DNA from: Chloroflexota bacterium | GTDB lineage: Bacteria > Chloroflexota > UBA5177 | Direction of reading: 5' to 3' | Assembly (NCBI GenBank): GCA_051002135.1 | Contig: JBPCMQ010000039.1 | Coordinates: forward strand, 25,510 to 89,509 | DNA: 64,000 bases | Part shown: positions 1,763 through 36,693 of the stretch, in pieces | Layout: every line of letters starts with the position of its first letter | Numbering within the stretch: position 1 is the stretch's first letter | Program-made: the position numbers and the translations under genes | The notes under the pieces: model-generated | Database searches by the model: none | Told to the model about the DNA's origin: nothing | What the model saw: the letters and a program-made list of their open reading frames with translations, nothing else

Positions 1763-2839
1763 CTACTGCCCCGCGAGCGCGGCGACGTCCGCCGGCGAGC
1801 GTGCCGGCGCCGATCCGCAGACCGGGCAGTCCGGATCGCGACGCAGCCTGAGCTCCATGAATGACGAGCTCAGGGCATCGAACATCAGCAGACGGCCGAC
1901 GAGTGTCTCTCCGATGCCAACGATTAACTTGATCACTTCGTTTGCCTGCAATAGGCCCATTATTCCGGGAAGCACGCCCAGAACTCCCGCTTCGCCTCAG
2001 GTGGGCGCGAGCGACGGTGGTGGTGGCTCTGGATAGACGCAACGGTAACACGGCCCGGCTCCCGCCACGAAAGTCGACACCTGGCCGTCGAAGCTCAGGA
2101 TGCTTGCCGAAACATTGGGCGTGCCCTGTCGCACGCATATCTCATTCAACAGATAGCGGGTATCAAAGTTATCGACGCCGTCGATGACGATGTCGTACCC
2201 CGCGAGGATGTCGTCGGCGTTACTCGCGTCAAGGCGGGTCTCATATCCGACAACCTTGACGTCCGGATTGAGCGCCGCAATTGACTGCCTCGCAGATTCC
2301 ACCTTGGACATCCCGACGCGTTCGGTCGTGTGTATGACCTGGCGTTGTAGATTGCTTTCCTCCACCACATCGGCGTCGACTATGCCAAGTGTTCCCACGC
2401 CCGCCGCCGCCAGATAGAGAGCCGAAGGCGAGCCAAGCCCGCCCACGCCTACGAGGAGAACTTTGGCGTCGAGAAGCTTGAACTGGCCTTCTTCGCCGAC
2501 CTCCGGGATGAGCACGTGGCGGCTGTAACGATGCATCTGGTCGGATGAGAGCGTGCGCGGAATCACAAAGGGCTGTCCAGCATCCTTCCAACCCGTGAAG
2601 CCGCCCCGCAAAGAGCGAACATCCTCGTACCCCATGTCCTGTAAAGTTCTGGCGGCCAGGACCGATCTGGTTCCTCCAGCACAGTACAACAGGACAGGCA
2701 TTCGCTTGTCCGGCACCGCATTTTCAATGCGCAGCTCGAGGTACCCTCGTGGCACGTGGATCGCGCCGGGGATGTGGCCCTCGTCCCATTCGATTTTTTC
2801 GCGCACGTCAATGAGACGCGACGCCTCCGTTTTCCCCAC
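1763..2839 (-). CDS. Rhodanese–ThiF/MoeB E1 fusion (MoeZ-like sulfur-carrier adenylyltransferase/sulfurtransferase). An in-frame TGA at 1997-1999 sits at the conserved active-site Cys position, making it a candidate selenocysteine. The true 5' end probably lies upstream of 2839.
   Basis: Track ORFs 1997..2839 and 1763..1975 are in the same frame, separated by one TGA. The rhodanese active-site loop is CAGGTRS. E1 motifs present: LLVGVGGLGS, the CYRC...CPVCG zinc site, and PEPPPP-SLAPT-[TGA]-GEAGVLGVLPGIMG aligning with MoeB PTCAEAGV / ThiF NCRTAGV. The rhodanese sequence TIEELTLPTFDELFSAAKRNVEEVSVAQASDD continues in frame upstream to a TAG at 2945-2947. Confidence 0.6.
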
Positions 2840-3005
2840 ATCGTCGGACGCCTGGGCAACGGAAACCTCTTCGACATTCCTTTTAGCAGCGGAAAACAGC
2901 TCGTCAAAGGTGGGCAGGGTCAGTTCCTCGATTGTGCATATGACCTATTGTAGCCAAAGCTGAAAGGGCGGCCTATGCCACCTGTTTTTCGTACCGGCCT
3001 CACTG

Positions 3006-3317
3006 TCAGCGTCGCCCATACCTTGCCTCCACGTCGGCAATCACATCACGGGGAGCGATGATATCCCACGCGAATGGGTGGCGCTCCTCCGGGGTACGAA
3101 AGTAGCGCGCGACAATTCGCATATCGTTGGATGTTACGGCCAGATCCTTGACTCGTCGGTCGTCCGTGTAAAGGCAGTCGCTGTCACTCGACCACTTCCT
3201 TCGCTCGCAAACCATCACTGCCCCCCGATAGTTGTGTGGACTACGAGGCGCATTATAGCACTCATGTTCTACTTCGCTTATGGCCCTCACCGGTGCGCTT
3301 GCGGCCCTCGGACCCAC
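3006..3317 (-). CDS. hypothetical small protein; start uncertain, possibly the internal MVCERRK start near 3215
   Basis: ORF with non-repetitive amino-acid composition. No recognisable motif. Confidence 0.25.
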   Translation of the reverse strand: MGPRAASAPVRAISEVEHECYNAPRSPHNYRGAVMVCERRKWSSDSDCLYTDDRRVKDLAVTSNDMRIVARYFRTPEERHPFAWDIIAPRDVIADVEARYGRR

Positions 3318-35441: not shown

Positions 35442-35649
35442 TCGTCACCCTATTTCCGGCGCTAGCATGCGCCACCACAACTATACGGCGTGACAAGCCA
35501 CGTACGAAGCGCCGCTCGAAGGCCGAATGGTTACCCGTTCCACGGCCTTACTCCCCACGCATGGCAACAATTCTATCGCCACTTAACTCCTCTGAGTATA
35601 CGAATGTTTAGTGAGAATCTGTAAAGTATGTCTCCCGTACGCTGTACGT

Positions 35650-36693
35650 CTACGGTGCGAGAGCCAGGGAGCAGCCGTCCTCGGACCCATCTATCCGGCC
35701 TACCGGACAATACAGGCTATCGTTCGAGAGAGCACCGCGGAAGGCCTGACAGTTTTTTGGTTCCAGGGCAACAAGTAGACCTCCGGAGGTCTGAGGATCG
35801 GACAAAAGGTCGGCGGTCACACCGTCGATGTCTTCACCGGCTTGTACGTACCGCTCGACATATGCTTGATTCGTCCTGGTTCCACCGGGAACATGTCCGG
35901 TCGCGGCGTAATCGCGAGCACCGGGCAGCAGAGGAATCGAGGAGATGGAAATGTGAGCGCTCACACCCGAGGCCATGCAGAGGTCCGCCAGGTGACCGAG
36001 CAGGCCGAAGCCCGTGATATCGGTAGCGGCGTGAGCATCGGCCTCGGTCATTGCCGTCGACGCCGAGCGATTCAACGTAGTCATCCAGCGAACCGCTTGT
36101 TCGACGTCCGCCGGCCGTGCCGCTCCTGCCTTGAGCGCCGTCGCGATCACACCCGTCCCCAGCGGCTTGGTCAGTACGAGGACATCGCCGGGCTGGGCCC
36201 CACGGGCCGTCATCATGCGCCGCGGATCGACGGTTCCTGTCACGGCGAGGCCGTATTTTGGCTCCGTGTCGTCGACCGTGTGGCCTCCGACGATCGTCAC
36301 GCCCGCCTCGCGCGCTTTATCGGCTCCCCCGCGCAAAATATCCGCCAGCACGTCCGCACCCAGCGAGGCCATGGGGAAGGCGGCAATATTGAGAGCCGTC
36401 AGGGGCCGCGCCCCCATCGCGAACACGTCACTGAGCGAGTTGGCGGCCGCGATCTGTCCGAACGTGTAGGGATCGTCGACGATGGGCGTGAAAAAGTCGA
36501 CGGTCTGGACCAGGGCAAGGTCGTCGCGCAAGCGGTAGACAGCCGCGTCGTCCGCCGGATTGTCGCCTATTAGGAAGTTGGGATCCTCGCTCCGAGGAAG
36601 GTGGCGCAGCACGTGCGCCAGATCAGCATGGCTGACCTTGCCCGCTCAGCCTGCAGAGCGCACGAGCGAGGTCAGGCGCGCATTGGACTGCAT
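35650..36693 (-). CDS. selD: Selenide, water dikinase (selenophosphate synthetase), selenocysteine-containing form. The in-frame TGA at 36646-36648 encodes Sec in the G-U-AGK motif. Start is the ATG at 36693; track ORF 35650..36612 is only the post-TGA part.
   Basis: Upstream in-frame translation gives MQSNARLTSLVRSAG-[TGA]-AGKVSHADLAHV, matching the SelD N-terminus (E. coli ...SHGAGCGCKISPKVL) with TGA at the Cys/Sec17 position. GGAGG Shine-Dalgarno 6 nt before the ATG. The rest of the protein carries the AIRS-domain motifs DDAAVY, GGHT and PQTSGGLL. Confidence 0.85.

Follow-up and report, generated by a model that had tools for sequence, protein, structure and literature searches.

Probable selenocysteine insertion elements in selD and an E1-like gene of a Chloroflexota bacterium, and the mostly coding origin of their shared CGUGC loop

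In a 64,000-nucleotide (nt) stretch of contig JBPCMQ010000039.1 from a Chloroflexota bacterium (the window), two genes carry an in-frame UGA codon followed by a hairpin whose apical loop begins CGUGC. The genes are selD, which encodes selenophosphate synthetase, and a gene for a MoeZ-like protein with a rhodanese and a ThiF/MoeB-type adenylyltransferase domain (the E1 gene). The two hairpins are probably independent, standard bacterial elements of the selenocysteine insertion sequence type (SECIS; bSECIS for the bacterial form), through which SelB would bind the mRNA and UGA would be recoded as selenocysteine (Sec), and the pentamer that they share probably derives from Val-Leu codons. Comparison with homologues indicates that the hairpins are under RNA-level selection only where Sec occupies the position (Sec forms) and not where Cys does (Cys forms). 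The hairpins are thereby further instances of a well-described mechanism, real but ordinary, and no new question is opened by them.

Under the proposed mechanism, each hairpin would act as an mRNA element inside the coding sequence, just 3′ of the Sec-UGA codon. The C-terminal winged-helix domains of SelB would bind the hairpin and recognize the G-U of its apical loop, and SelB would deliver Sec-tRNA(Sec) once the UGA reached the ribosomal A site. A Val codon would be the natural in-frame means of placing G-U in the loop, with the flanking C, G and C supplied by GC-rich codon choice and by the Leu codon. In selD, the element would be the distal member (H2) of a tandem pair of hairpins, and a Gln-to-His variant of a selD SECIS that crosses phyla.

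The UGA codons and their hairpins

Both UGA codons had been proposed as Sec codons in an earlier note made from the sequence alone, and alignment with homologues bore this out, each UGA falling opposite Cys in Cys forms and opposite UGA in Sec forms. The selD comparison drew on 80 loci (L001-L080) from a scan of species-representative genomes, 57 of them Sec forms and 23 Cys forms. The sequence around the selD codon is MQSNARLTSLVRSAG-UGA-AGKVSHADLAHVLRHLP (peptide ...SAG-U-AGKV...), and the aligned column held TGA in the 57 Sec-form homologues and TGC or TGT in the 23 Cys forms. For the E1 gene, a metagenome scan gave 2 Sec and 78 Cys forms, after which ten Sec-form loci were fetched; the counts below refer to 12 distinct Sec forms and to 80 Cys forms (the 78 plus L171 and L172). 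The E1 gene reads ...PPPPSLAPT-UGA-GEAGVLGVLPGIMG... (peptide ...SLAPT-U-GEAGVLGVLPG...), and the catalytic Cys of the 80 Cys-form homologues aligned with the UGA. As expected of a ThiF/MoeB-type selenoprotein, the E1 product has a ThiF domain, UGA in place of the codon for the catalytic Cys, and a frame that stays open through GVLGxxPG. A protein search returned more than 100 database entries, some 306 residues in length, that end at ...LAPT and are truncated at the UGA; these belong to a Chloroflexota clade at 73-85% identity. The residue before Sec in E1 is Thr (LAPT-U-[G/S]E[A/S]G), and that before Cys in the Cys forms is Ser (LAPS-C-[A/S]E[G/I]G) (L081-L172).

The two hairpin strings given in the earlier note each occurred once in the window, on the minus strand and after the in-frame UGA, with a loop starting CGUGC: TGGCGCACGTGCTGCGCCA of selD at 36620..36602 and TTCTGGGCGTGCTTCCCGGAA of the E1 gene at 1983..1963. 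The 7-bp stems ascribed to them were confirmed. In selD all seven pairs are Watson-Crick (-11.4 kcal/mol, z = -2.5 when folded alone). For the E1 hairpin the seven pairs include one U.G, and the stem extends to an eighth pair, G.U (-9.8 kcal/mol, z = -1.6). Minimum free energy (MFE) folding also revealed a second selD hairpin, H1, which the note had missed and which lies between the UGA and the hairpin that it described (H2). H1 starts 7 nt after the UGA, has a CAU loop without G, and has U36620 in common with H2.

Both hairpins were compared with the published bSECIS consensus, which allows 3-9 nt in the loop and 4-16 bp in the upper stem, expects G at loop position 1 or 2 (mostly in the arrangement N1-G-[G/U]-N-N2-N(0-2), with N1 and N2 mostly paired), and sets a distance of 16-37 nt between UGA and loop and an MFE of -7.5 kcal/mol or lower (PMC13188914). 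A structural study describes 6-8 bp stems whose loop has a conserved G some 20 nt after the UGA (PMC4605307). The selD loop of 5 nt on 7 bp and the E1 loop of 7 nt on 8 bp were within the limits on loop and stem, CGUGC and CGUGCUU both conformed to the loop pattern, and the spacings (20 nt for E1, 32 nt for selD H2) and energies given above also fell within range. Both loops carry G-U, in agreement with the G/U-containing apical loop that the earlier note had invoked for a SelB ligand. The hairpins resemble bSECIS elements of the Zhang and Gladyshev consensus, with E. coli fdhF as prototype, in lying in the coding region directly 3′ of a Sec-UGA, in having a small loop with an early G followed by U and an upper stem of 7-8 bp, and in the presence nearby of a gene for a winged-helix SelB. 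They differ in their open 5- and 7-nt loops (C and C unpaired) and in having no evident bulged U; the E1 hairpin is without a conserved lower helix, and selD has the extra hairpin between the UGA and the SelB-type hairpin.

The selB gene lies about 10 kb from selD. Its product matched E. coli SelB (5lzb) over the full length (E = 3e-72, residues 10-625) and is presumed to be the reader of both hairpins.

Several observations weigh against the identification of the two hairpins as standard bSECIS elements. The N1-N2 pair of the consensus is not formed, C and C being unpaired in both loops; in most selD orthologues of other lineages the pair is present as G-C or A-U. The selD loop, at 32 nt from the UGA, is near the far limit and is separated from the codon by another hairpin, and the choice of the SelB-binding hairpin in selD was made from loop composition only. 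Over the whole window, Rfam at the gathering score matched tRNAs only and no SECIS family; near the two UGA sites, a threshold relaxed to E up to 10 gave nothing beyond chance-level miRNA and CRISPR matches. Neither selA nor tRNA-Sec was found within the 64-kb window, where the sole tRNAs are tRNA-His (20755..20830) and tRNA-Val (22562..22638).

Sec forms and Cys forms compared

The earlier note would have been contradicted by hairpins that were not conserved in orthologues. Instead, compensatory changes were found for both, together with frozen synonymous sites in E1. In the 12 Sec-form E1 sequences, 97.9% of hairpin cells were paired. Pair 18-36 was C-G in eight of these and U-A in three, a compensatory change, and GTY covaried with GGR. 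RNAalifold on the Sec forms recovered exactly the same helix and no conserved lower helix; a lower helix at the E1 UGA had appeared in several single-sequence folds and was rejected for want of support from RNAalifold. The strongest evidence among the E1 comparisons is the freezing of synonymous sites: codons 7-11 were CTG (12 of 12), GGC (12), GTG (12), CTT (10) and CCC (11), against 3-6 variants at each of the flanking fourfold codons. The median hairpin energy was -11.7 kcal/mol in Sec forms and -5.4 kcal/mol in the 80 Cys forms (Mann-Whitney p = 3.5e-5).

These comparisons bear on the proposal that the hairpins are by-products of conserved peptide motifs and the UGA codons ordinary stops or pseudogene lesions. 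The E1 motif is indeed self-complementary, and a partial hairpin was already present at the SECIS position of Cys-form E1 genes because Leu-Gly (CUN GGN) complements Pro-Gly (CCN GGN); all eight pairs could form in 17 of 78 Cys forms, and 7 of 80 were as stable as the window SECIS (-9.8 kcal/mol or better). The single-sequence z-scores of selD H2 and of the E1 hairpin are also modest when taken singly. However, synonymous sites were frozen in Sec forms only, with compensatory change present, the UGA at the catalytic Cys was kept in more than 100 proteins with the downstream frame intact, the selD hairpin was absent from Cys forms, and selB and selD are themselves in the window. An origin as by-products is therefore very improbable. 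The loop G-U of the partial hairpin in Cys-form E1 is supplied by the Val codon, and the E1 motif looks pre-adapted for a Cys-to-Sec switch.

The selD hairpins showed the same dependence on Sec. The nearest relatives of the window selD are from Chloroflexota metagenome-assembled genomes (MAGs) at 60-68% identity, and H2 was common in Sec-form selD of Bacillota, Desulfuromonadota, Chloroflexota and others. Of 58 Sec forms, 21 had all seven outer pairs of H2; of the 23 Cys forms, none had them. When the cells of H1 and H2 were taken together, 69.6% were paired in Sec forms, against 26-49% for slid controls and with none of 500 shuffles reaching 69.6%; the Cys forms, at 47.5%, were no better than controls. 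Most Sec forms had a proximal hairpin, and hardly any Cys forms did. Compensatory changes were abundant in H2 (pair 33-43, for example, occurred as GC, AU, CG, UA, GU and UG) and even altered the residue that follows Val-Leu (R, C, S, G or H). The invariant bases of the H2 loop were the G-U of the Val codon.

SelD selenoproteins are classical. The window protein resembles them in the placement of Sec in the N-terminal G-U/C-x-x-K motif and in a distal hairpin coded by L-A-x-V-L-x-x. The typical H2 is UGGCGCAG-GUN-CUGCGCCA, coding L-A-Q-V-L-R-H, in which CAG-GUN-CUG presents a 3-nt GUN loop. The window gene differs in that the codon before Val is CAC (His) where CAG (Gln) is usual, giving CGUGC and not the GUN triloop, and in that the register of its proximal hairpin lies on the K-V codons and not in the common GGUCC...GGACC form. 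Substitution of Gln (CAG) by His or Tyr (CAC, UAC) turns the triloop into a pentaloop because the change breaks the closing G-C pair.

It has to be asked which of the two selD hairpins SelB would bind. If the element were H1, or a composite of H1 and H2, then H2 would be an accessory or a relic and the loop shared with E1 would join a SECIS to a hairpin that is not one. H1 is at canonical distance, with its stem beginning 7 nt after the UGA, and was kept in relatives of the window gene (L001-L003) in the same register and with changed pairs; moreover, 16 Sec forms of other lineages have a proximal hairpin only, with a G-rich loop (GGG, GUC or CGGGU). In the window, however, the CAU loop of H1 contains no G and its distance from the UGA is 15 nt, so that it departs from the consensus in both respects, and the H2 stem is upheld by many compensatory changes, including those that alter amino acids. 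H2 is the likelier SelB site because H1 has no loop G and because, of 24 Sec forms with a G-U-loop H2, H1 is missing or lacks a G-loop in 21. The 16 forms with a G-rich proximal loop point the same way, since they are the ones that lack H2. A SelB element in H1 or in both hairpins is accordingly unlikely, and H2, not H1, is the probable SelB site.

In 24 Sec forms the G-containing loop of selD was the distal one (at about +33 nt, formed by the Val codon), and in 16 it was the proximal one (at about +17 nt; GGG, GUC or CGGGU). It occupied both positions in only 3 Sec forms, and neither in 20 of the 23 Cys forms. The SECIS thus seems to have moved between adjacent selD hairpins depending on lineage, with the proximal one kept as a possible spacer; when folded, H1 would shorten the path from the UGA to H2 to roughly the canonical distance.

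Origin of the shared pentamer

Over both strands, the window contained only three hairpins in which seven or more stem pairs carry a loop that opens with CGTGC, and two of these were the selD and E1 hairpins, which follow the only two credible in-frame UGA codons of the window (at 32 and 20 nt, respectively). The earlier note took the identical loops as a sign that a lineage-specific consensus may be emerging. The pentamer, however, lies in the same reading frame in both genes, as CAC-GUG-CUG (His-Val-Leu) in selD and GGC-GUG-CUU (Gly-Val-Leu) in E1, and the first five loop bases are identical because both loops are xxC-GUG-CUN codons of a conserved x-Val-Leu. Coding for Val-Leu fixes loop positions G2, U3 and Y5 and leaves positions 1 and 4 free. 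The form xxC-GTG-Cxx accounted for 28 of the 152 Val-Leu dipeptides (18%) in window genes, and with window codon usage the chance that two x-Val-Leu loops match in all five bases was about 9%.

Homologues likewise spoke against a special consensus. The peptide G-V-L-G-V-L-P-G also occurs in Cys-form E1 proteins, and CGUGC was found at the same place in 38 of the 80 Cys forms, for which no SECIS is required. Sec forms are therefore distinguished not by the pentamer but by the full loop CGUGCUU, which 10 of 12 Sec forms and 5 of 80 Cys forms have. In selD, a CGUGC loop was found in the window gene and, on a full stem, in Geotalea toluenoxydans (L016); an Acidobacteria MAG (L051) has the pentamer on a weaker stem with 5 of 7 outer pairs, and a Cys-form selD (L013) has it at the same place without any stem. 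Three selD genes (L001, L002 and L005) have a CGUGU loop, and the paired form GGUGC occurs in a sister Geotalea genome (L018) and in one member of the near group (L003). The other selD loops included GGUUC, GGUGC, AGUUU, GGUCC, GGUAC and CGUGU. Given the Val-Leu codons, the Cys-form E1 genes, the Geotalea and Acidobacteria selD genes and the general bSECIS pattern, the claim of an emerging consensus was not supported in the form in which it was made. The shared pentamer appears to be mostly a coding coincidence inside the general consensus, and as such would be weak evidence for a lineage-specific code.

Conserved synonymous sites in the loop count against a purely coding origin. In E1 Sec forms the loop codons were GGC in 12 of 12, GUG in 12 of 12 and CUU in 10 of 12, while GUC is the most frequent Val codon and CUU a 13% codon. 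In the five selD genes nearest the window, the Val codon was GUG in all five, where local codon usage would predict some 33% (p about 0.004). Coding constraint alone therefore leaves part of the pentamer unexplained. The same five genes had no GUC, and four of them had an unpaired C at N1. GUC, the Val codon that prevails in the GC-rich group, appeared a single time among selD loci with the distal hairpin. In low-GC lineages the Val codon of the selD loop was instead GUU in 9 of 12 cases against an expected 35% (p about 0.005). The choice of Val codon in the selD loop depends on lineage, a hint that the position following G-U is not neutral; a lineage preference for a C-G-U-G-Y loop is possible.

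The strongest form of such a preference would be a lineage-specific SECIS code, in which SelB of this Chloroflexota-like lineage reads an open C-G-U-G-Y pentaloop and not just G-U. It would draw on the retention of loop C1, G4 and U7 at synonymous sites of Sec-form E1 while the flanks vary, on the enrichment of CGUGCUU in Sec over Cys forms of E1, on the uniform GUG, the unpaired C at N1 and the avoidance of GUC in the nearest selD genes, and on the different base after G-U in low-GC lineages. Against it, only two gene families are involved, both with Val-Leu in the loop, so that the protein sequence dictates G2, U3 and Y5. The loop recurs in Geotalea, with the weaker-stem pentamer in Acidobacteria, a near-group gene has the paired GGUGC, and the pentamer is frequent in Cys-form E1. 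Scans of the window and of 300 kb of same-lineage DNA yielded no third selenoprotein gene, and the conserved loop bases could serve the geometry of hairpin and loop and not a changed SelB specificity. A lineage code is thus a doubtful explanation, and it seems similarly unlikely that both known selenoprotein mRNAs of the lineage converged on C-G-U-G-Y through an extended SelB specificity. If they had done so, SECIS loops would carry a lineage signature (G after G-U here and in Geotalea, U in low-GC Bacillota) that could be used in mining for selenoproteins. The preferred reading remains that of two standard elements with a pentamer from Val-Leu codons.

Gene context, further candidates and significance

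Positions of the features discussed in the text, numbered along the window
Feature	Position	Strand	Basis and remarks
selD (selenophosphate synthetase), 347 codons, Sec at codon 16	35650..36693	-	translation; Pfam AIRS + AIRS_C
Sec-UGA codon of selD	36646..36648	-	translation; aligned with homologue TGC/TGT/TGA codons
selD proximal hairpin H1, AGGUCAGC-CAU-GCUGAUCU	36620..36638	-	MFE fold; between UGA and H2
selD distal hairpin H2, UGGCGCA-CGUGC-UGCGCCA	36602..36620	-	loop 36613..36609, 32 nt after UGA
E1 gene, rhodanese + ThiF/MoeB-type adenylyltransferase (MoeZ-like), Sec at catalytic Cys	1763..2917	-	Pfam; translation
Sec-UGA codon of E1 gene	1997..1999	-	translation; aligned with catalytic Cys
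E1 SECIS hairpin (probable), GUUCUGGG-CGUGCUU-CCCGGAAU	1962..1984	-	loop 1976..1970, 20 nt after UGA
Genes 3′ of E1, same operon	82..1728	-	Pfam; members in the next three rows
ThiS-like sulfur carrier, E1 operon	1453..1728	-	Pfam
CysM-like enzyme dependent on pyridoxal phosphate (PLP), E1 operon	474..1433	-	Pfam
JAB peptidase, E1 operon	82..531	-	Pfam
selB, Sec-specific elongation factor, C-terminal winged-helix RNA-binding domains	46244..48133	+	Pfam GTP_EFTU + SelB-wing_2 + SelB-wing_3

E1 is the first gene of an operon in which it is followed by genes for a ThiS-like carrier, a CysM-like enzyme that depends on PLP, and a JAB peptidase, and the order UbiA-E1-ThiS-PALP-JAB was common to the window and the ten fetched Sec-form loci (which include L162-L170). 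The gene set presumably corresponds to the CysO-CysM-Mec+/MoeZ sulfur-carrier cysteine pathway of Mycobacterium tuberculosis, which likewise has a rhodanese E1-like adenylyltransferase, a ThiS/MoaD-like carrier, a CysM-like PLP enzyme and a JAMM/JAB peptidase. The window operon differs in its N-terminal rhodanese, in Sec at the E1 catalytic residue and in a carrier that ends GG-NP. With its end ...AMAGG-NP, the carrier would need the JAB peptidase to cut two residues and expose Gly-Gly. The closest Cys-form E1 proteins (L171 and L172, 75-80% identical) are paralogues outside the ThiS-PALP-JAB operon; their context is an ArsR-type helix-turn-helix gene, E1, then a glutaredoxin/pyridine-nucleotide disulfide oxidoreductase.

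Selenoproteins of the MoeB type, with hairpins that resemble bacterial SECIS elements, were described in 2005 from the marine Sargasso Sea selenoproteome under the name 'molybdopterin biosynthesis MoeB protein' (PMC1088965), and are also listed in a 2026 review. By its description, the Sargasso Sea protein is like the window E1 in being a ThiF-family adenylyltransferase with an in-frame UGA and a downstream SECIS-like hairpin. The window E1 differs in its N-terminal rhodanese, its ThiS-PALP-JAB operon and its soil Chloroflexota-like lineage.

The start codon of the E1 gene is probably CTG (2917..2915). The N-terminus was set by alignment with the starts of relatives (MSTF, LSTF or VPTF). At that place the gene has no ATG, GTG or TTG; the aligned codon is CTG, and the AGGA that precedes it by 8 nt makes a CTG start likely. 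The first canonical start (GTG 2839) would remove about 26 residues of the rhodanese domain.

Within the window and 300 kb of loci from the same lineage, a search for an in-frame UGA with the best coding frame on both sides and a consensus hairpin after it returned E1 and selD only. The same scan without the hairpin returned only ordinary same-frame gene junctions, for example that between UDP-glucose dehydrogenase and glycosyltransferase genes at 12116. The third CGTGC-loop hairpin of the window (60122..60147, plus strand) was rejected as a selenoprotein signal, having no upstream in-frame UGA. It is a perfect 10-bp hairpin, CGAGCGTGTC-CGTGCG-GACACGCTCG, near the 3′ end of the gene for valyl-tRNA synthetase, within which it lies some 50 nt short of the stop codon and ahead of the start of an overlapping rhomboid gene. 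The TGA of dnaJ (29258..29256) was considered as a read-through site and, on translation, proved to be an ordinary dnaJ-hspR junction, dnaJ being followed directly after the TGA by a MerR/HspR-like open reading frame in the same frame (28845..30323, minus strand). Two UGA codons upstream of an aminotransferase gene (8881 and 9049) were translated and rejected. A dnaK-grpE-dnaJ-hspR-clpB heat-shock cluster is present in the window, and lon adjoins selD.

Both selD and E1 were truncated by gene callers, and their annotation needs correction. The Sec and Cys forms of the two genes serve as clean natural controls that show RNA-level selection on coding sequence. If the base after the loop G-U is truly non-neutral and lineage-dependent, sharper bacterial SECIS search models would follow. 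For the organism, the two UGA codons imply that Sec is probably used in two enzymes or more: SelD itself and the E1 protein of a sulfur-carrier cysteine pathway.

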